Of a stretch of DNA of 37,751 nt, positions 15,567 through 36,817 are shown piece after piece. The stretch spans positions 1-37,751 of IMG/VR virus record IMGVR_UViG_3300012953_000079; one strand, 5' to 3'. Origin of the DNA: a virus (Duplodnaviria; Caudoviricetes). Under the pieces are notes generated by a model. It was not told where the DNA came from and ran no database searches. It saw only the letters and a list, made by a program, of their open reading frames with translations. Position numbers and translations under genes: made by a program. Each line of letters begins with the position of its first letter. Within the stretch, counting starts at the first letter, position 1.

Positions 15567-17774
15567 CTATTTTATTATTGTTGAATGAGATCCTTTATTA
15601 TTATATCTCGATATTTTAATATCTAAACTAGGTTTTATATATTTAGGTTTTGGATGATATAAATGTCTATTACACGCCATAATTGCTAAACCTGAACTTA
15701 TTGTTGCATCAAATTTAGTTCTTTTATTTATATCAAACTTAGCCCAATCATTAAGCGTATTATTAAAATATATGTTTCCACCGCCATTTTGGTCAATGCC
15801 AACATAATTATTTATATACGTTTCAATTGCAGCCGCGTGTGCTTGCTTTATGTCTTCTGATGTATTTGGAATACCTCCTATTTCTTTTTCTGTTATAGAC
15901 AATTTATTCCAAACTTTATCAGGTCTATTCATTGAATAGCCTCTGTATCCTCTTCTTTTTAAATGATATAATAATCTAGGTTTATTATTTTCTGCAAGTA
16001 CAGGCATACCATAATAAACTAAAGCCATTAATACATCTTCAAAAAACATTTCAGCTGTTTGAGGTCTTGCTACATATTCTAAAAAGAATGAATTAGCAGG
16101 AGCATCTTCCATACTAAACTTTGTTAATCCGTGTAAGGCTCCTTTTGAACCTTTTCCGTCTGTTGTTCCAGATATATCATATGAATCACATCCAAATGCA
16201 CCCATATGTTCATTACCTGGTGTTTTTATACCATTTTTTAGTACAATATTGTTTTCTAAATTTTTAGATGGTGTCCACGAAATAAAAAACCTACCGTTTT
16301 TATTTGGAGTAAACATTACTTTAGAATCTTTTATTCCGTTTTCCCAAGAAAAAGAACCTTGCGTAATATATCCTTTACGCATTAAATCATCATTATAATC
16401 AATCTGCTCATAAATTTTACTTAAATTGAATATACTGTTTTTAGTTTCATCTCTAAAAGCATGCTCCTCTGTTCTTGGAAATTGTCTATAATATTCATTT
16501 AAAGCATCACCATCGTGCTTTAATCCTTCAACTTCATTATTCCAAAAATCAATTACGCCGGTGTCAATAAATTCGCTATCGTTTCCAAGGACTTCTTTTT
16601 CAGGTGTTCCGAATACAGGATGTCCATAAGAATCAATGAATCCTTCGTAGTTCCATTCCATAGGTATGAACAAACTATATAATCCCGAGCTAGTCTGGCC
16701 ATTACGATTTCGTTTTGTGACATCTGAATCATAATAAAGTTTTTTAAAATTATCGCCTCCTTTATCTAATGAGTTTGATGTTGAACCCATCAAACATTTT
16801 CCTATTACTTTACTTCCAAGTCTGAGTGTTGTTTTTGTAACTCTCCAGTTATTTAAAATATTATCAGGTCTTTCCCATTTGCCAGATTCATCGTGTACTA
16901 AAATACGAAGCTTTTCCCCATCATAAGAGTTGTCACCTGTGTTTTTCCAGTCGATAGTGGTATCCAATCCCTCTGGAATGTCATTGTCAAACCCAACGGA
17001 AGCTTTGAGGTTATTCTTTGTAAGCTTTGACGCTGGAACTCTGTAAGCAAGCTCTGTCTTAGGTCTGTCCATACCATCTTGAATGGGTCGGAAGAAGAAA
17101 GGATAATTGGTACTAATTGGAACAACCTTGTCTGTAAACATTTTTTTAGCGTCTGCTCCAGACTTTGAAAGTATCCCAAATCGTGCATCTTTTGTAATTG
17201 TAGCTTGATTGACGGTTTCGCAACTTGCCATAAAAGAGAATCCTGATCTTCTATTTTTAAGATAGCATAATCCATAACACCTTTGGTCGGCTTTACAAGC
17301 TTCCCAAAATATATAGAATACTCTATTTGCTTCGCGAAAATCTGGTTTTCCAACGTCAATTTTTGTCCATTGCAAATACATGTAGTGAGTACCAGTAATA
17401 TAAGTGGGAACATTGTTGTTAATAAACCAAAACCCGTTTTCTCTTTTGTTAAATTCTTCATCAATATAATTGTACCATTTATTTTTAAAAACAGTAGGAT
17501 AAGTATCCCATTGAAATCTTGTTTTTATTTGATCTAGTTCTTTAGGATACACATGTGCTTCCCATCTATTATTTGTATTAGTTATTTTTTTTGGAGATGG
17601 TGGTAAAGCTATTTTTAAACTTTGTATTTCAATTATATCACCTATAGCACCTGTTTTACTAATAACAATTATATCATGCTCTTTATTATATCCATAATCC
17701 CATTTTTTTGCTTTGTTATATCTTTTTATAACATTTATTTTAATAGGATTAATTAATTTAATTAAATCGTACAT
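15567..17774 (-). CDS. terL: Terminase large subunit (735 aa)
   Basis: Walker A-like LKNRRSGFS, Walker B ILVHDESGKW, coupling motif GSTS, RNase H-like nuclease motifs FGCDSYD and FDATISSG. Confidence 0.9.
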   Translation of the reverse strand: MYDLIKLINPIKINVIKRYNKAKKWDYGYNKEHDIIVISKTGAIGDIIEIQSLKIALPPSPKKITNTNNRWEAHVYPKELDQIKTRFQWDTYPTVFKNKWYNYIDEEFNKRENGFWFINNNVPTYITGTHYMYLQWTKIDVGKPDFREANRVFYIFWEACKADQRCYGLCYLKNRRSGFSFMASCETVNQATITKDARFGILSKSGADAKKMFTDKVVPISTNYPFFFRPIQDGMDRPKTELAYRVPASKLTKNNLKASVGFDNDIPEGLDTTIDWKNTGDNSYDGEKLRILVHDESGKWERPDNILNNWRVTKTTLRLGSKVIGKCLMGSTSNSLDKGGDNFKKLYYDSDVTKRNRNGQTSSGLYSLFIPMEWNYEGFIDSYGHPVFGTPEKEVLGNDSEFIDTGVIDFWNNEVEGLKHDGDALNEYYRQFPRTEEHAFRDETKNSIFNLSKIYEQIDYNDDLMRKGYITQGSFSWENGIKDSKVMFTPNKNGRFFISWTPSKNLENNIVLKNGIKTPGNEHMGAFGCDSYDISGTTDGKGSKGALHGLTKFSMEDAPANSFFLEYVARPQTAEMFFEDVLMALVYYGMPVLAENNKPRLLYHLKRRGYRGYSMNRPDKVWNKLSITEKEIGGIPNTSEDIKQAHAAAIETYINNYVGIDQNGGGNIYFNNTLNDWAKFDINKRTKFDATISSGLAIMACNRHLYHPKPKYIKPSLDIKISRYNNKGSHSTIIK
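16553..16732 (-). CDS. Putative overprinted ORF B in the +1 frame of terL (59 aa, MIQMSQNEIVMARLARDYIVCSYLWNG...)
   Basis: Hand-translated; A/T-rich leader AAAAAACTTTATT-ATG; terL uses many C-ending codons across this span. Confidence 0.35.
   Translation of the reverse strand: MIQMSQNEIVMARLARDYIVCSYLWNGTTKDSLILMDILYSEHLKKKSLETIANLLTPA
16898..17461 (-). CDS. Putative overprinted ORF A in the +1 frame of terL (187 aa from ATG) with an N-terminal hydrophobic/lipoprotein-like signal
   Basis: About 560 nt without a stop in an AT-rich gene; atypical terL codons; MKNLTKEK-hydrophobic stretch-LTTC N-terminus. Confidence 0.4.
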   Translation of the reverse strand: MKNLTKEKTGFGLLTTMFPLILLVLTTCICNGQKLTLENQIFAKQIEYSIYFGKLVKPTKGVMDYAILKIEDQDSLLWQVAKPSIKLQLQKMHDLGYFQSLEQTLKKCLQTRLFQLVPIILSSSDPFKMVWTDLRQSLLTEFQRQSLQRITSKLPLGLTMTFQRDWIPLSTGKTQVTTLMMGKSFVF

Positions 17775-17779
17775 TCTAT

Positions 17780-18052
17780 CTATTTAGATCTTCTTTCAGC
17801 AAACCCTTTAAACGGTTTTTTTACATTATCAGAAACATCTATAACATTTTTTTCACTTTCAAGTCTAGTTAATATTTCAAAAGCATCAAATATTGCTAAT
17901 TTTTTTGTAGCTGCTGCATTTTTTAATCTATCTGCAGCTAAATCCTCATTAGGATCGTTTAAAATAATTTTTTCTTCTGCTACTTTTATTAACTCATCTA
18001 CTGCTTTATAACCAGCTTGGATTATATTCAATTTCATTTTTTTGTGTTCCAT
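17780..18052 (-). CDS. Putative terminase small subunit (90 aa)
   Basis: Small helical protein immediately upstream of terL; assignment mostly positional. Confidence 0.5.
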   Translation of the reverse strand: MEHKKMKLNIIQAGYKAVDELIKVAEEKIILNDPNEDLAADRLKNAAATKKLAIFDAFEILTRLESEKNVIDVSDNVKKPFKGFAERRSK

Positions 18053-18599
18053 AGTTTATTGCTATTGAATTATCAGGAACTCTATATAGTCTTTCATTAT
18101 CAAAAACAAACTCATATTCGCTGTTTTGTGTAAAGCCTACTAAATCATCTTTTTTAAGATTTAAGCTTCTTAAAAGTGGCGAAACGTGCTTTAAAACGCC
18201 TACAAGAGGCTTTTCTTTACTTTCGTTAAATTTATCTTGATTAAAAACTGGTTTTACAAAACTATAACCATCTATTGTTTTCCATTCATTATTTCTTTTA
18301 TATAAAAATATTTGATCTATATAACAAAAATATTTATTTTCTTTAAAAAAACTTGAACCATGTTTATCTATACCGTTCATACCATAGAATCTTCTAAATA
18401 TATTATGATGAACAATTACTTCATCATTTATTTTTAAAACAGAATTATTAATTGGTGTTTCAATTATTTTGCCTATTCTATTTACAAATTTATGATCTTC
18501 TATTGAGGTATTTAAAATTAATTCCTTTTTATCAACTTGTTTTTTATTGTTATACACACCATTTACTGGAGATATAATATAACAATGAAGATGTTTCAT
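18006..18599 (-). CDS. Tandem GroES-like (co-chaperonin fold) protein (197 aa)
   Basis: Two GroES-like units: YIISP...ELILNT...GKIIETP...LKINDEVIVH and YSFVKP...VGVL...LKKDDLVGF...EYEFVFDNERLYRV...I. Confidence 0.55.
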   Translation of the reverse strand: MKHLHCYIISPVNGVYNNKKQVDKKELILNTSIEDHKFVNRIGKIIETPINNSVLKINDEVIVHHNIFRRFYGMNGIDKHGSSFFKENKYFCYIDQIFLYKRNNEWKTIDGYSFVKPVFNQDKFNESKEKPLVGVLKHVSPLLRSLNLKKDDLVGFTQNSEYEFVFDNERLYRVPDNSIAINYGTQKNEIEYNPSWL

Positions 18600-19367: not shown

Positions 19368-20258
19368 TTAAGCTGTATAACTACCGCTACCGGTATATTT
19401 TAAAATTGTAAATCCATTTACACTAGACGTATCTACATTAGGACTACCACTTGTTGTTCCCGAATAATTTGCATTTGGTATTTTTAAAAAAACAACACCT
19501 GATCCTCCTGCTGCTCCAACACCTGCATTATTCCAGCAGTTTCTACCACCACCACCTCCGCCGAGATTAGCAGTGCCAGCTGTAGGATTACCATATTGTC
19601 CGTTTGCGGCTCCTCCACCGCCATTACCTCCAGCTCCGCCTGCTGCTGTATAATAACCAGCACCACCTCCGCCACCAGCATAATATGTTGCTGTTCCTGT
19701 AATACTACTTTGGGTACCAACTCCTCCGCCACCACCGGCACTATATGTACTAGAACCACCGTTTCCGCCGTTTCCGCCGTCACCTCCACCACCACCGGCA
19801 TTAATAACACCTCCTCCGGTACCACCATTTCCTCCGGCAGATGTTCCAGTACCTGAACCACCTGAATTACCACTTTTTTGGCCGCCGCCACCACAGCCTC
19901 CATCAGCACCAGATGTTCCCGCGTCTCCAGTACCTGCACCACCACCGCCATTTACAGTATAAGTACCTCCACTTCCATCAATATTTGTAATTGAAGTATT
20001 TCCCCCATTAGATGTAGTTCCAGCTGTGTAACTATTAGGTCCCCCTGCACTACCTGCACCTATTGTTATTGCTAATACTGTACCAACAGCTGTTGTGCCA
20101 CTTGTTGCTTCATATGCAGCACCAGCACCACCACCTCCACCACCAGTGGAATTTATAGCACCGCCACCGCCACCGGCACCGGCTGCTACCATAAGAAAAT
20201 TAAAAGTGTATCCTGAAGGTGCGTAAGATCTAGGGGCTAAAAGTTTTCTTCTTAACAT
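19368..20258 (-). CDS. Glycine-rich adhesin-like protein (296 aa)
   Basis: Many GGGGG runs with variable loops, C-terminal GGSGVVFLKI; paralogue of 32300-33238; architecture reminiscent of T-even gp38 polyglycine adhesins. Confidence 0.7.
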   Translation of the reverse strand: MLRRKLLAPRSYAPSGYTFNFLMVAAGAGGGGGAINSTGGGGGGAGAAYEATSGTTAVGTVLAITIGAGSAGGPNSYTAGTTSNGGNTSITNIDGSGGTYTVNGGGGAGTGDAGTSGADGGCGGGGQKSGNSGGSGTGTSAGGNGGTGGGVINAGGGGGDGGNGGNGGSSTYSAGGGGGVGTQSSITGTATYYAGGGGGAGYYTAAGGAGGNGGGGAANGQYGNPTAGTANLGGGGGGRNCWNNAGVGAAGGSGVVFLKIPNANYSGTTSGSPNVDTSSVNGFTILKYTGSGSYTA

Positions 20259-25629: not shown

Positions 25630-26859
25630 TTAGTCTATTTTAGTAATAAGAATTTTATAATCCCCTGCTGAAACTGCTGACGCAAAAACAACTGTTACTG
25701 TTGAAGTTGATGCTCTTGCAATATCTACATTTATTGTTTCATACGGAGAACCAGTTTCAACCACTTGACACATTACATCTCTTGTGCCTAAACTATGTGT
25801 TACCGTATATGTTATATTATCTGATGATGCGACTGTTGATTCACTAGCATTTAAATTAACTGCAAAACTTCTTGCTGCTAATCCTTCTGGTGTTACAGCT
25901 TTTGTTGAATTTGTACCAGTTAAAGCCTCAGCTGTTGTTGCAAGCTGTACGCCTCCTATAGCACTTGCACTAGCTGCTGATGTTGCAATAGTAATTGAAC
26001 CCGCACCGTTTGTTACTGTTATACCGTCACCACCGGTTAATGTTCCTAATTGTAAATCACTATTAGATCCGTGTCCTATTAATAATTGGCCATCTGTTGG
26101 GTTAGCACCATCATATGTTGTAATTGAACCACCTAAATCTAAACTGCCAATATCAAGACTACCTTTTGTACCAGAAAAAACTTCTGATGAATTTGTTGCT
26201 TGTGTTAGCACTGTAAACTTTCCGGTTGAATCATCAAATCCAAAAAATCCAACCCTAGAACTTCCATCATTATATTTAAATTCAATACCTCTATCCTTAT
26301 TGTCATCAGAACCGTTACTTCCTAAAGTAAATATTGGATCAGCAACTGTTATAGTTGTAGAATTGACCGTTGTTGTAGTACCACTAACAATTAAATTTCC
26401 TGTTACAGTAACATTACCAGCAAAACTAATTGTATCTCCTGCATCCGTTCCTATAGTTATTGTTTCATCTGCAGCACCACTTGAAGATTCTAAACTAGAT
26501 AATAATGATAATAGTTTTGCATTATCTACAAAACCATTTACAAAATCATATATTTGATCTCCTGTAGCAAGTGCTGTACCCCCATTTGTAACTGAACCTG
26601 TAACAACATTTATTCCCGGGTTTGGACCTGTTGAATTTGTTACAGTTAATTGATTTGTATTATTTGATGTTACACTTTTTATATCACCAGATACATCTAT
26701 CCAAGTGCTGCCTGTATATAAATATAGTTTGTCATCACTAGAATTATAATATATTTGCCCTTCAGCTGGGGAACCGGGATCTGAAGTAGCAACATGTACT
26801 ACAATGTTTATAAGTTGATTTTTGCCAAAGTCAACATTAGATAAATATTTTATTGCCAT
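25630..26859 (-). CDS. Tail fibre protein (409 aa)
   Basis: EGQIYYNS, GNLIVSGTTTTVNS, GVQLATTAEALTGT..KAVTP fibre repeat; C-terminal VTHSLG domain. Confidence 0.7.
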   Translation of the reverse strand: MAIKYLSNVDFGKNQLINIVVHVATSDPGSPAEGQIYYNSSDDKLYLYTGSTWIDVSGDIKSVTSNNTNQLTVTNSTGPNPGINVVTGSVTNGGTALATGDQIYDFVNGFVDNAKLLSLLSSLESSSGAADETITIGTDAGDTISFAGNVTVTGNLIVSGTTTTVNSTTITVADPIFTLGSNGSDDNKDRGIEFKYNDGSSRVGFFGFDDSTGKFTVLTQATNSSEVFSGTKGSLDIGSLDLGGSITTYDGANPTDGQLLIGHGSNSDLQLGTLTGGDGITVTNGAGSITIATSAASASAIGGVQLATTAEALTGTNSTKAVTPEGLAARSFAVNLNASESTVASSDNITYTVTHSLGTRDVMCQVVETGSPYETINVDIARASTSTVTVVFASAVSAGDYKILITKID

Positions 26860-26864
26860 TTTTT

Positions 26865-27209
26865 TTAGTTTAGAAATGCTTTACCGCTAAAAGCAGCGGA
26901 AAAAGTTATTGTTAAGTTGTTACTGTCTGTATATGATATATCTCCAAAAACTACATCGTTGTCTGTATCTTCTACTATTGTTACAGCAGGAAATTTATCA
27001 AGATTATGTGTTATATTCCAAGTTGCAGAAGCAGATGATTGTACAAAAGTTGTGGTTTCACCATTTATATTAGCATTAGTTTCTATATATGTTTTTATAC
27101 CACTTAAAGGAAAATTAGAAGTAATGTTATTTTTATCTGCATCTGTTCCTATTAAAGAATCACTATCAGTTAAATTTGTATCTTTTACATATGTATTTAT
27201 TCTTGCCAT
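26865..27209 (-). CDS. Short fibre anchor/adaptor protein (114 aa)
   Basis: N-terminus similar to that of the 703-aa fibre; C-terminal WNITHNL..FP.V domain. Confidence 0.6.
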   Translation of the reverse strand: MARINTYVKDTNLTDSDSLIGTDADKNNITSNFPLSGIKTYIETNANINGETTTFVQSSASATWNITHNLDKFPAVTIVEDTDNDVVFGDISYTDSNNLTITFSAAFSGKAFLN

Positions 27210-27619
27210 TATTTATGCATTTTATTTCCAAAAACTTTTTCAACACCACGAGAACCGAAATATCCACCAATTACAATAGTTAATAAAGATGTAATTGAAT
27301 CAAGTGAGTATTCTAAAAACCAGCCCGTAACATAACTTATAACTAAAAAAATTAATGTTAATGGTCTTACATTAGCCGCAAGAAATGTTCCTGATCTTGC
27401 ATCAGCTACCCATCTTTTGGTTGTTCCGTCTATTTCAGCTCTTTCTAATTTTAATTTCTCTAAAGCAACTTCTTTGTCTGCTTCAGACATATCACTATTT
27501 CCTATTATAGCTTCTATGATACCACCTGCAGGAGTACCACTTGCTATTGAAGAAACAACACTTGGTATTTTACCTAATAAAAATTTTCCAACTGCTGTAT
27601 CTTTAAATTTTTTTTTCAT
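27209..27619 (-). CDS. Putative holin (similar to the 'holin of 3TMs for gene-transfer release' family; 136 aa)
   Basis: RWVAD...NVRPLTL, two hydrophobic helices, GYFGSRGVEK; near the endolysin gene. Confidence 0.7.
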   Translation of the reverse strand: MKKKFKDTAVGKFLLGKIPSVVSSIASGTPAGGIIEAIIGNSDMSEADKEVALEKLKLERAEIDGTTKRWVADARSGTFLAANVRPLTLIFLVISYVTGWFLEYSLDSITSLLTIVIGGYFGSRGVEKVFGNKMHK

Positions 27620-27627
27620 AATTTAAT

Positions 27628-27987
27628 TTAACAATTCCACCTTCTTCTAGCTGCTCTACCTCTTTCTGAAGTCCAGCTTTTAGAACGTGCGCAAAAAGAC
27701 TTTCTTCTTTTAGCTGCTTTACTTCCAGGTTTAAGTTTAGATGGAGGGGTGGTAACTGCAGTTTTTAATTTACTACCTGGATTATCTGCTTTATATTTAT
27801 TAACGCCCTTTTGACTCATACCGCCTCCGGCCGCAGCACCTGTGCCAGTTTTTTTAGCTTCATTATAATAACCTAATGATTTCTTTTTAGAAGGGGCAGG
27901 TGGTTTTTTCATTAAAGGTCTACCACAAGGTTGTCTTCCCATAGAATTCATTGTTGTTTTATTTACTCTGGCGGTTATTGGTCCCAT
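27628..27987 (-). CDS. Small basic protein, DUF6321-like (119 aa)
   Basis: GGMSQKGV..Y...NPGSKLK, RRKSFCAR and terminal RRWNC motifs. Confidence 0.6.
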   Translation of the reverse strand: MGPITARVNKTTMNSMGRQPCGRPLMKKPPAPSKKKSLGYYNEAKKTGTGAAAGGGMSQKGVNKYKADNPGSKLKTAVTTPPSKLKPGSKAAKRRKSFCARSKSWTSERGRAARRRWNC

Positions 27988-28442
27988 ATTATATATTTTG
28001 TTTTACCTTTTTCTTTTATAGCTCTTAATATTCTATTTCTATTTCCTATTTCTTTATAACTAACATGTACCCAAGCTGGATTATGCTCGTCTCCAAATTC
28101 CCATATAAGCTGATCGAAATCAAAAGTTTCTTTTATATGATCAAAAAAAACTTTATTATTTACTTTGCTATACACATCATCTAAATCAATTGCTTCTCCT
28201 TTGCAATGTTGCGAATTTTTTGATCCACCTATAGCTGTATTAAGTTCCGGACTTCTATAAAAACTTGAAATATAAATAGGACAATCTACATACTTTCTAA
28301 GTGGTTCAAAAATTTTATTTGCAGTTAATTGCATTTTTGAAATAATATAACTATTTGGAAAATTATCTATTCCAAGTCTTTGTGCTGTATTAGATCTAGT
28401 AGCTTCTTTTAAACTAATATGATCACTTATTTTTATTTGCAT
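27975..28442 (-). CDS. Peptidase M15 family endolysin (155 aa)
   Basis: SFYRSPELN.AIGG...SQH..GEAID and WVHVSY zinc-ligand motifs. Confidence 0.85.
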   Translation of the reverse strand: MQIKISDHISLKEATRSNTAQRLGIDNFPNSYIISKMQLTANKIFEPLRKYVDCPIYISSFYRSPELNTAIGGSKNSQHCKGEAIDLDDVYSKVNNKVFFDHIKETFDFDQLIWEFGDEHNPAWVHVSYKEIGNRNRILRAIKEKGKTKYIIWDQ

Positions 28443-28553: not shown

Positions 28554-28790
28554 TTATTGTTTTTTTATTGCTTCAAGTAGCCCACGCTCATACTCTAATT
28601 GTTTCTCAATTTCAAGTATACGTGCTTCAAGTTTATCTATAATTATAATTTTTTCATCCAGTCTTTCATGCACAAGATGTATTTCGTCTTTAACCGATGT
28701 AAACTCAGAAAAGATACCCCCCGCTGTAAATACTGCAGTAATAAACATAATAACTATAGATAAGTTATTTTTTATAAATGTATCAGGCAT
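28554..28790 (-). CDS. Membrane-anchored coiled-coil protein (78 aa), possible lysis accessory
   Basis: N-terminal hydrophobic helix followed by heptad-like region; upstream of the endolysin. Confidence 0.55.
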   Translation of the reverse strand: MPDTFIKNNLSIVIMFITAVFTAGGIFSEFTSVKDEIHLVHERLDEKIIIIDKLEARILEIEKQLEYERGLLEAIKKQ

Positions 28791-29264: not shown

Positions 29265-29704
29265 TATCTATTGCTATCTTTAAACATATCATCTATAGCT
29301 TTATTATAAACTTTATCTGTATATGTTTTGTTTTTAAAAAAAATATTTCTTTCTGATAAAGGTAAATCTTCACTGCCAAGCATTATTCTATATATTCTGC
29401 TTATCAATTGTTTACCTTTAAAAGATACTTTAAAAGTATTATATTTTATTGTAGTTCTGTTTCTTATAGAATAAACATCTATCCAGTCTTCTTTTCTAAG
29501 TCTTTCCCATCTTTTTTTATCCCAAGAATATGTATAAGTACCCTTGATATAATCATTACGAGTAAATAGACCTATGCAATCAAAATAAATTAATAATTCT
29601 AAATCAGCATCTTTTAACTTATATGTTTTACATGCCCATCTTCTTATTAGCCTATAATATTTTAAAAGTTGTAATTCTTTTAAATCAGATGGTTCTAATC
29701 TCAT
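29264..29704 (-). CDS. Putative winged-helix DNA-binding protein (146 aa)
   Basis: DLELLIY...RLRKEDWI...FKVSFKGKQLI pattern resembles MarR-type winged helix; overlaps the groES stop. Confidence 0.45.
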   Translation of the reverse strand: MRLEPSDLKELQLLKYYRLIRRWACKTYKLKDADLELLIYFDCIGLFTRNDYIKGTYTYSWDKKRWERLRKEDWIDVYSIRNRTTIKYNTFKVSFKGKQLISRIYRIMLGSEDLPLSERNIFFKNKTYTDKVYNKAIDDMFKDSNR

Positions 29705-29958
29705 AATACTACAATAACATCCTGCTCTTTTATAACATAGTATAAATTTTCTTCAAAATCTATACCATACCCAGCATGCTTATCATAATAAATAATATCA
29801 TTCTTATTTAATCCTTTTACAGCATCACCTACATATATAACTTTTGCTTTTTTATATCTAATTTCATTTTGATGCTTATCAGCAATAATAAGACCATTTT
29901 GTTTTTTAGGTGACTCTTTTATTAAATCTATGATTATATAATTATTAATTGCTTTCAT
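29701..29958 (-). CDS. groES: Co-chaperonin GroES (85 aa from MKAINNY)
   Basis: Mobile-loop-like NGLII, AKVIYVGD.V, DIIYYDKHAG, VIKEQDVI; adjacent to groEL. Confidence 0.85.
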   Translation of the reverse strand: MKAINNYIIIDLIKESPKKQNGLIIADKHQNEIRYKKAKVIYVGDAVKGLNKNDIIYYDKHAGYGIDFEENLYYVIKEQDVIVVL

Positions 29959-31501
29959 CTCTAACATTTGAAATTATACAATCAGCTGATATAATTGTAG
30001 AAGCAACTGAAGCCGCATTTATTAAAGCTGTTTTAGTGACAAGAACAGGATCAATAATACCTGAATTAATCATATTTACTATTTTACCTGTAATAACATC
30101 AACACCTTCTTTTTTAGATTTTAATTGTTTTTTATCTAAACCAGCATTATCTAATATTGTTTTATATGGTGATTGAATAGCTGTTAATAATATTAGTTCA
30201 CCTTCATTATTTGCTTTAATATCTTTTGAAGCATTTAATAAGCATATGCCACCACCTGGAACTATGCCTTCTTTTATTGCTGCTTTTACTGCATAAATAG
30301 CATCTTCAACTCTATCCTTTTTTTCTTTTAATGCTACTTTACTATCTGCTCCAACTTTTATAACTCCAACAGATCCAGTTAACATAGCTTTTCTTTCTTC
30401 AAGCTTTTTGATAAAAAAATCATTAGTTTCTTCTTTTAGCTGATTATCTATAGCTTCAATTCTACCTTTTATTTTATCATTTATATTATCTATAGTTATT
30501 ACAGTATTTTTATCGTCAGTTACTGCTTTAACACATTCTCCTAAATGATTTACTTCGATTAAATCTAAATCATCACCTAAGTCTTCATTTATAATAGTAG
30601 CACCCGTAATAGATGCAAGATCTTCTAATAAACCTTTTTTAAGTATTGAAAATCCGGGAGAATCTATAATATTAACTTTTATATTACCTTTAGCTTTATT
30701 CATAATTAAAGCTGACATAGGTTGAGCTCCTAAATTTCCTATAATTAACATAGCTCTATTACTTTTAATAGCATATTCAAGTACAGATTGTATTTTTCTT
30801 ATACTATTTATTTCTGATTCAACTAATAATACTAAAGGATTTTCTAAAACTGCATTGCCTTTTTCTTTATTTGTTATAAGGTGAGGTGATTTTAAGCCTG
30901 AATCAAATTGCACTCCATCTATGATCTCAACGTGCGTTTCTGGCGTTTCAGACTCTTCCATCAATACCACACCATTTTTTCCAACTTTATTATATGCTTC
31001 TGCAATTAAACTACCAAGTTGTATGTCATTATTAGTTGAAATGTTAGCAACGTATTCTAGCATTTTATCTTTAACCGGTATTGATTCTTTGTTTAAGTAT
31101 TTAATTACTTTTTGACACGCTGAATTAATACCTTCTTTTACTAGTCTTACATCACTATTATTTCTTTTGTATGCTTCAGTTAAGATAGCCGAAGCCAGGA
31201 CGGTGGAGGTGGTGGTTCCGTCACCGGCTTCTTTTACTGTTTTTTGAGCTGCTTCTTTTATAAGAGTAGCACCTATATTTTCTACAGGGTCTCTTAATAT
31301 AACGCTATTCGCAACAGTTACGCCATCTTTGGTTACAACAGGTTTTCCTAATGCATCTTCATAAATAACACATTTTCCTGATGCTCCTAATGTTGATTTT
31401 ACCGCATTATTAAGTTTAATAACACCCTCCATTATTCTATTTCTAGCTTCATCGCTAAAGTTTAAATCTTTAACAATGTCACTTGCATGATTAAATTCCA
31501 T
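29945..31501 (-). CDS. groEL: Phage-encoded chaperonin GroEL (518 aa)
   Basis: VTKDGVTVA, AGDGTTT, KDRVEDA, GIVPGGG and GIIDP motifs. Confidence 0.95.
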   Translation of the reverse strand: MEFNHASDIVKDLNFSDEARNRIMEGVIKLNNAVKSTLGASGKCVIYEDALGKPVVTKDGVTVANSVILRDPVENIGATLIKEAAQKTVKEAGDGTTTSTVLASAILTEAYKRNNSDVRLVKEGINSACQKVIKYLNKESIPVKDKMLEYVANISTNNDIQLGSLIAEAYNKVGKNGVVLMEESETPETHVEIIDGVQFDSGLKSPHLITNKEKGNAVLENPLVLLVESEINSIRKIQSVLEYAIKSNRAMLIIGNLGAQPMSALIMNKAKGNIKVNIIDSPGFSILKKGLLEDLASITGATIINEDLGDDLDLIEVNHLGECVKAVTDDKNTVITIDNINDKIKGRIEAIDNQLKEETNDFFIKKLEERKAMLTGSVGVIKVGADSKVALKEKKDRVEDAIYAVKAAIKEGIVPGGGICLLNASKDIKANNEGELILLTAIQSPYKTILDNAGLDKKQLKSKKEGVDVITGKIVNMINSGIIDPVLVTKTALINAASVASTIISADCIISNVRDESN

Positions 31502-36483: not shown

Positions 36484-36687
36484 TTATTCGTATATCAACT
36501 CTTTGTTTGCGCCCCTAAAAGGTAAAAACATTTCATTGTAGAGGTGTTGTGCTAGCGTTACCTCTTGAGAATTGTCTATACAGACGTCTTTTGTGATATT
36601 TTTAAAATTTTCGTACGTATTTTCGTAATGTTTTATAGCACTACAGCCGTTCAGGGCCACAAGTGCAGTTATGATCATCTTTTTCAT
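36484..36687 (-). CDS. Small putative lipoprotein (67 aa; start corrected to MKKMIITALVALNGC)
   Basis: Basic n-region, hydrophobic core and LNGC lipobox-like motif. Confidence 0.6.
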   Translation of the reverse strand: MKKMIITALVALNGCSAIKHYENTYENFKNITKDVCIDNSQEVTLAQHLYNEMFLPFRGANKELIYE

Positions 36688-36817
36688 TGTTGTTTGTTTG
36701 TGCCAGATGTATTTCAATCAAGGCGTTTGTTAGTTTGTCTAAAGCTTTATGGATTTTTTTCAGTTCATTCCTGATCCCATTGGCCTTTATGTGTATTTTG
36801 TCTTCATCTTTTTCCAT
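36641..36817 (-). CDS. Hypothetical protein (58 aa, MEKDEDKIHIKANGIRNEL...), first gene of the minus-strand block
   Basis: Hand-translated; amphipathic helix; overlaps the lipoprotein start by 47 nt. Confidence 0.55.
   Translation of the reverse strand: MEKDEDKIHIKANGIRNELKKIHKALDKLTNALIEIHLAQTNNNEKDDHNCTCGPERL

Follow-up and report, generated by a model that had tools for sequence, protein, structure and literature searches.

An Overprinted Reading Frame in the Terminase Gene of Marine Phages: A Probable Lipoprotein with a Possible Role at Lysis

The Window and Its Terminase Gene

The terminase large subunit gene (terL) of an uncultured marine phage contains a long second reading frame, which raises the question of whether the gene also encodes, in its +1 frame, a protein of its own (ORF1) and what this protein could do. 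The window, i.e., the whole stretch of DNA analyzed, is a 37.8-kb fragment of the phage genome with a completeness of 63%, and it contains terminase, portal, and structural genes, GroEL/GroES, a holin-like gene (27209..27619, minus strand; phrog_3427, E 2e-12), and an endolysin gene of the peptidase M15 type (27975..28442, minus strand; phrog_894 and PF08291). The terL gene (15567..17774, minus strand) encodes 735 aa and matched phrog_6681 with E 1.5e-165. Its nearest annotated relatives belong to a spring-water phage (64%), Flavobacterium elemo phages (45%), and Cellulophaga and Tenacibaculum phages (32-37%); because of these relatives, the window was assigned to a presumptive Bacteroidota host, and the phage lineage carrying ORF1 probably infects Bacteroidota. 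In eight public metagenome DNA runs of marine or aquatic origin, half or more of the window's words were present. Four runs were compared with the window across ORF1, and the contigs of one of them, possibly the window's own source, showed three differences, none of which was a stop. A sigma-70-type promoter scan of the window, based on a model that may not suit the host, returned 15 sites versus 18.4 expected.

Length and Codon Usage of ORF1

ORF1 lies at 16898..17461 (minus strand) and encodes a predicted lipoprotein of 187 aa from ATG 17461; a TTG codon located one codon upstream (17464) is the other start option and extends the ORF to 16898..17464. An earlier note on this DNA had reported a long stop-free +1 ORF within the latter coordinates. 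The ORF is present, and the stop-free run is longer than claimed, comprising 208 codons (terL codons 84-291, from 17524); translation from TTG 17464 or ATG 17461 gave the product start described there. The run was compared with three null models (10,000 shuffles each), namely synonymous permutation, genome codon usage, and codon shuffle, for which the mean shuffled runs were 66, 57, and 60 codons, respectively. None of the 10,000 shuffles reached 208 codons under any model, so that the codon-shuffling check proposed in the note favored the frame. The second-longest +1 run among the 27 genes tested was 155 codons long (19484..19951, minus strand); it is located inside a Gly-repeat gene (19368..20258), had no PHROG match, and is likely a by-product of GGT/GGC repeats.

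The codon usage of terL differed between the overlap and the rest of the gene. The codons noted earlier as atypical were all enriched inside the overlap: GGG (4/12 inside vs. 0/29 outside), CTT (5/9 vs. 2/25), GAC (9/15 vs. 3/24), AAG (6/16 vs. 4/40), and CGA (2/11 vs. 0/16). The reverse was observed for TTA (1/9 vs. 20/25) and ATA (2/11 vs. 24/40). The overlap spans terL residues 171-180, which we take to be a Walker-A-like motif, and ends at residues 292-296, presumably a Walker-B-like motif. Given the shuffles and the conservation described below, ORF1 is almost certainly a real protein that has been missed by standard annotation.

Conservation of the Frame in Related Phages

A first set consisted of the window and 80 viral relatives with a terL identity of 70-83%. 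Over terL codons 105-263, 36 of these 81 genes had no +1 stop, with 7.4 stops expected on average. A larger set of 292 terL genes was reduced to 187 non-redundant ones, 119 of which were unrelated to the first set and served as the hold-out. The number of +1 stops in codons 108-220 was bimodal: none in 101 genomes (hereafter open), one in 3, and from two to nine in 83. The frame conservation asked for in the earlier note was thus found in 101/187 relatives, including 62/119 in the hold-out. A start codon was present at terL codons 99-109 in 98 of the 101 open genomes, and an ATG at these codons downstream of the last stop occurred in 90/101 open versus 25/86 closed genomes. The end of ORF1 varied among the relatives from codon 222 to codon 323.

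A quick, midpoint-rooted tree was built from the terL part outside the overlap. The open genomes were found on many deep branches, and the closed ones formed one clade of 31 and several nested losses. This pattern would suggest a single origin of ORF1 followed by repeated loss, with recombination as the remaining alternative. In five of five distant terL genes, the +1 frame was closed by 10-15 stops each. A profile search with ORF1 returned 146 hits, which read as +1 frames of terL or frameshift chimeras. When the hits, available without genomic context, were reread in the terL frame, 137 of 151 scored stretches fitted it at ≥0.85, the lowest scores belonging to frameshift chimeras or to stretches read from more distant terL genes; no free-standing homologue of ORF1 was detected among them. 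ORF1 thus shows a frame that is open beyond chance and conserved, a product under selection, and a range narrower than that of terL, and a de novo origin in the +1 frame is likely. Literature searches, with subscription papers and supplements outside their scope, returned no description of ORF1. To our knowledge, few overprinted genes in dsDNA phages are well supported, and most of these are spanins inside spanins. The present set provides more than 100 natural variants of one gene within an essential motor gene, where it has been retained, extended, truncated, lost, and given a new signal.

Selection on the ORF1 Product

In the overlap of open genomes, xTA codons were absent before purines (0/374, by definition) and occurred at a normal level before pyrimidines (247/407). 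Together with a bias that ends at the ORF1 stop, this ruled out general TA avoidance or codon bias as the cause of the open frame. Synonymous sites were fixed in terL codons 123-153, where they specify Leu-rich h-region residues followed by Thr-Cys-Ser, Gly142, and Ser153 of the +1 product. By terL codon numbers, the leader residues were retained in open versus closed genomes as follows: L127 in 98/101 vs. 24/86, L129 in 98/101 vs. 30/86, T133 in 93/101 vs. 33/86, and C134 in 97/101 vs. 28/86. Downstream of codon 155, the synonymous diversity exceeded that of the rest of terL, and the +1 product was depleted in L/I/V/F/M (25% in open vs. 42% in closed genomes). This polar shift ended at each genome's own ORF1 stop in both the first set and the hold-out. 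The GC3 excess in the hold-out was +0.47 at codons 271-288 where ORF1 covers them (n = 40) versus +0.06 where it had ended (n = 21), and +0.48 (n = 27) versus +0.02 (n = 32) at codons 293-314; with genomes treated as independent, the p values of this stop tracking were 7e-10 and 5e-11. Since the bias ends at each genome's own stop, selection acts on the ORF1 product.

Not all features of the product can be ascribed to selection. The K+R content of the tail was 14.3%, versus 14.5% for the same frame in closed genomes, and its basic charge was therefore not counted as selected. The tail cysteines are largely forced by terL. In every genome, terL also imposes Cys28 of the leader, as it does the Cys at terL codon 212.

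Other sources of an open frame were also considered. The remaining four reading frames were closed in 39/39 genomes. Consensus RNA folds were weak (-2.3 kcal/mol over the leader), without compensatory changes. A programmed frameshift from terL was rejected, as no conserved slippery site was seen by eye and the start codons are kept; the fused terL/+1 proteins found in databases are apparent sequencing frameshifts.

Predicted Lipoprotein Features

The N-terminal part of ORF1 (17372..17461, minus strand) resembles a signal peptide, as reflected in the residue counts of open and closed genomes. It comprises a basic n-region, a Leu-rich hydrophobic h-region, and two cysteines, Cys28 (17380-17378) and Cys30 (17374-17372), both within about 35 residues. 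The former is forced by Met-Tyr of terL, and the latter is selected via a rare TTG Leu codon. The leader was net positive in 99/101 open genomes, with a mean best KD12 of 2.84 versus 1.47 in closed ones.

The lipobox consensus is given as [LVI][ASTVI][GAS]C (PMC6139136). In the main lineage, the residue before Cys30 was T in 93, I in 6, and S in 2 of 101 genomes, so that position -1 is generally off consensus; in the window, I precedes Cys30 and T precedes Cys28, and both are off consensus at -1. In a diverged sister lineage of six records (L588 / L598:15308-15979 (G113), G114, G118, G120, G122, and G123), the frame is open to codon 323 and encodes about 223-236 aa. Both cysteines are missing there, and a short signal ends in a relocated x-G-S-C lipobox, [TI]-G-S-C at codons 115-118, i.e., 16 codons upstream of the main-lineage site; Ser agrees with the consensus at -1, and the strict classes at -2 and (for Thr) at -3 are not matched. 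The [TI]-G-S-C motif was found in 16 of 150 stored search hits and in none of the 187 main-set genes. Mainly because the lipidation site moves while the tail stays, the ORF1 product is considered very probably a lipoprotein, a call made from the encoded residues. The embedded envelope protein proposed in the earlier note is accordingly well supported by the frame conservation, the selected signal-peptide codons, and the canonical lipobox of the sister lineage. The '+2 rule' reportedly fails in Bacteroidetes (PMC5837995), and for this reason the membrane to which ORF1 is sorted is not predictable from sequence.

The mature part (16901..17371, minus strand) comprises about 20 semi-conserved residues followed by a polar tail of variable length that is predicted to be disordered. 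After the Cys, it is 87-186 aa long in the relatives and, as deduced from the ORFs, about 205-220 aa in the sister lineage. The AlphaFold model was confident for the leader helix only (mean pLDDT 47.6) and too poor for a fold search. The enrichment of the tail in Pro, Ser, and Gly argues against a coiled coil, a feature of i-spanins. A C-terminal TM segment exceeded KD19 1.6 in 1/101 open genomes, and the best KD19 in the window was 0.99; a u-spanin of the T1 gp11 type was rejected for lack of this segment. ORF1 had no match in PHROGs and Pfam, including the exclusion lipoproteins Cor and Llp. The best score in the ESM Atlas, 0.86 to GLPGLI-family clusters, was below the recognition threshold and is taken as a lead only.

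Lysis-Cassette Genes and the A4 Lipoprotein Family

The earlier note saw no obvious spanin pair in the lysis cassette, which is only partly right, as spanin-like candidates exist. Upstream of the endolysin, a gene at 28554..28790 (minus strand) encodes a 78-aa protein with an N-terminal TM segment and an acidic coiled coil, which is i-spanin-like or holin-like and a candidate partner of ORF1. A free-standing 67-aa lipoprotein (36484..36687, minus strand), which coexists with ORF1, is a rival o-spanin candidate. Its gene has an L-N-G-C lipobox, a form listed among deviant spanin lipoboxes in PMC6139136, and overlaps a gene for a 58-aa coiled-coil protein (36641..36817, minus strand). In three relatives (G115-G117), such a lipoprotein and coiled-coil gene pair directly follows the TM coiled-coil gene; the lipoprotein is 58-67 aa long in the window and these relatives. 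The pair could represent a spanin module, which in the window is split. Acidic residues prevail in the coiled coils of the candidate partners (13-18 D/E vs. 9-12 K/R), and basic ones in the ORF1 tail of the window (20 vs. 12). A modelled complex of the mature part of ORF1 with the 78-aa coiled coil scored 0.00, which is evidence neither way.

Some relatives carry another lipoprotein family, designated A4, which has its own gene located directly after the endolysin or directly before the TM coiled-coil gene. Like ORF1, A4 proteins consist of a signal, a Cys, a short conserved stretch, and a long polar tail (S/T/N/Q/G/P content of 49% vs. 42% in ORF1); unlike main-lineage ORF1, they have a canonical lipobox. 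The family comprised 1023 database proteins and corresponded to unnamed Atlas clusters. No sequence homology between A4 and ORF1 was detected by hhalign (probability 2.9%).

Further cassette variants were observed. A cassette before the endolysin, encoding a 400-aa exported protein, a TM coiled-coil protein, and an exported thioredoxin-like protein (PF00085), was found at L093:11861-14142 (G003) and in many relatives; it is unusual for a phage and absent from the window fragment. Two distant relatives without ORF1 encode proteins of 207 and 181 aa near the endolysin (L081:15470-16093 and L082:13189-13734), with an N-terminal signal, a Cys, a beta-strand-like C-terminus, and no informative family match, which are possible unimolecular-spanin analogues. 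A 161-aa lipoprotein of record L246 was present in its own record only (1/11).

Distribution of ORF1 and A4

Because the cassette is located downstream in most relatives, association tests from upstream flanks and partial contigs gave no information. To avoid bias, records were chosen by the TM coiled-coil gene; 45 of 80, plus 11 shorter or very long ones, were searched for terL, and 21 had a close, classable terL. A4 was sought in the whole records and was found in 0/13 open versus 7/8 closed ones (Fisher 7e-5), with two near-redundant pairs among the 13 open records and four A4 positives that had contributed to the profile. After the addition of records picked by terL, A4 was present in 1/17 open versus 9/12 closed records. 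A free-standing canonical lipoprotein was not found in six near-complete open genomes. When the window's own TM coiled-coil gene was used to pick records, A4 occurred in none of the 15, and 11 of the 12 with terL were open.

The open and closed states were scattered on the terL tree and alternated between sisters. Phylogenetically independent pairs (4.3 opposite, 0.1 same) gave a median p of 0.125, which is not significant; a p of 0.03 was obtained only under a post-hoc cut restricted to ORFs ending at codon 270 or later. Exceptions were also found. ORF1 was open in 8 of 14 classed records picked by A4, seven of which end at codon 256, with six forming one cluster. Two near-complete closed genomes (G067 and G119) had neither gene and no canonical lipoprotein by pattern, and no A4 gene was detected in the large closed clade (G006, G029). 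Taken together, the gene distributions suggest that ORF1 and the A4 lipoprotein are near mutually exclusive, ORF1 likely standing in for A4. This relationship points to a function that can be tested for a de novo gene.

Putative Function of ORF1

The preferred reading, to which we assign a probability of about 0.45, is that ORF1 is a late outer-membrane lipoprotein that acts at lysis in an o-spanin-like manner and does the job of A4. Late expression is suggested by its location in terL. Translation of ORF1 would begin at a separate start codon within the terL transcript and be followed by Sec export, acylation at Cys28 or Cys30, and sorting to the outer membrane. The unstructured tail, of at least about 87 residues and with a sequence that would matter little, may serve as a tether across the periplasm. 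After the endolysin removes the wall, the tether could bring the outer membrane into contact with the inner one or with the acidic coiled coil of the TM protein encoded in the lysis cassette.

The earlier note had suggested a spanin or a lysis regulator. The near mutual exclusion with a lysis-cassette lipoprotein supports this only indirectly. ORF1 lacks the u-spanin architecture, and it sits within terL at a distance of 11 kb from the TM coiled-coil gene rather than inside or beside an i-spanin gene. The o-spanin-like reading is further opposed by the non-canonical lipobox of the main lineage, the absence of a conserved interface in the tail, and the 58-67-aa lipoprotein of the window and G115-G117, which could itself be the o-spanin.

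Two other readings are both judged unlikely. According to the first, the same lipoprotein blocks the receptor used by the phage or covers the cell surface, as in superinfection exclusion or lytic conversion by T5 Llp or Cor, which would keep infected cells and debris from capturing the progeny. The repeated loss of ORF1 and the genomes with neither gene suit such an accessory role, and Llp, a small outer-membrane lipoprotein, is described as binding FhuA (10.64898/2026.03.26.714494). One of 12 A4 members matched phrog_1119 (Cor), but this match is weak (E 1.9e-4 to 5.7e-4), and another member matched an Rz-like spanin family (E 0.03). Moreover, receptor binding should need a conserved surface, whereas the ORF1 tail drifts, and the terL position would imply late expression. 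According to the second, ORF1 has another late role, such as lysis timing, an inner-membrane anchor with an uncleaved TM segment, or an aid to virion release, and its association with A4 is due in part to common ancestry or to linked exchange of cassettes. The off-consensus main-lineage lipobox, the non-significant pairs test, and the coexistence of ORF1 and A4 in some genomes would fit this role; the canonical lipobox of the diverged lineage, the selected Cys with a small residue preceding it, and the opposite states in several sister pairs speak against it. That no protein is made, and that local codon or GC bias, RNA structure, or constraint on terL leaves the frame open as a side effect, is very improbable: terL does force two of the cysteines everywhere and public RNA runs contained ≤0.07 of the window's words, but the bimodal stop counts, the bias ending at each stop, the retained start codons, the normal pyrimidine control, the closure of the other four frames, and the weak RNA folds all contradict it.

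Returning to the lysis reading, ORF1 and A4 are candidate factors by which these phages may get through the outer membrane; in Table 3 of Bartlau et al. (PMC8776804), an endolysin only is listed for the related phages Calle and Gundel. A wider proposal, which is possible though somewhat doubtful, is that a lipoprotein overprinted on the terminase ATPase domain repeatedly took over from an unrelated lysis-cassette lipoprotein and moved its lipobox. The two would together represent an outer-membrane lysis factor of Bacteroidota for which a lipid anchor and a long disordered tail suffice, with almost any polar sequence serving as the tail, and its mechanism would be unlike that of known spanins.

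Comparison with Known Systems

Lambda Rz1 in Rz and T7 18.7 in 18.5 are embedded o-spanins (Kongari et al. 2018, PMC6139136). As far as that source describes them, ORF1 resembles both in being a lipoprotein-type gene out of frame inside another phage gene and in having an unstructured periplasmic part rich in disorder-promoting residues. Unlike them, it sits in the terminase gene rather than in an i-spanin gene, has a non-canonical lipobox in the main lineage, and lacks a conserved C-terminus; its mature part is also much longer than the 40 aa of Rz1. T5 Llp and Cor share with ORF1 the predicted character of a phage-encoded outer-membrane lipoprotein, but are described as small free-standing genes with a defined receptor target.

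ORF2 and Other Overlapping Frames

A second, small +1 ORF (ORF2) was found in terL at 16553..16732 (minus strand), with Met at 16732, 16723, or 16702 and a conserved core at terL codons 353-388, where a second cluster of fixed synonymous codons occurs. The ORF2 motif score was bimodal, and the motif was present in 91/187 genomes (71/101 open and 20/86 closed); a Met at codons 347-358 was found in 35 of 36 motif-bearing genes, and changes in the core were conservative in the +1 frame. No signal peptide was detected in ORF2. Its conserved D-[ST]-L triplet resembles what we take to be the Bacteroidota O-glycosylation motif. An ORF1-ORF2 fusion was rejected, as an in-frame stop is present at terL codon 328 in 39/39 open genomes, and ORF2 has been gained or lost independently of ORF1. 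These features suggest that ORF2 is probably a separate small gene. Its support is weaker than that of ORF1 because stops are also rare in this region of motif-less genomes (no +1 stop in 31/38). Two ORFs, annotated as hypothetical, are also nested in gene 19 of T7, the terminase large subunit gene (19.2 and 19.3, 85 and 57 aa; NC_001604). Compared by annotation alone, ORF1 and ORF2 likewise form a longer and then a shorter out-of-frame ORF in terL, but in an unrelated phage group.

Two further observations concern the rest of the window. Phage-encoded GroEL and GroES and a second GroES-like gene adjoining the terminase genes are located at 29701..31501 and 18006..18599, respectively (both minus strand). 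An antisense ORF of 257 codons (25784..26557, plus strand) lies opposite a gene encoding a 409-aa structural protein.
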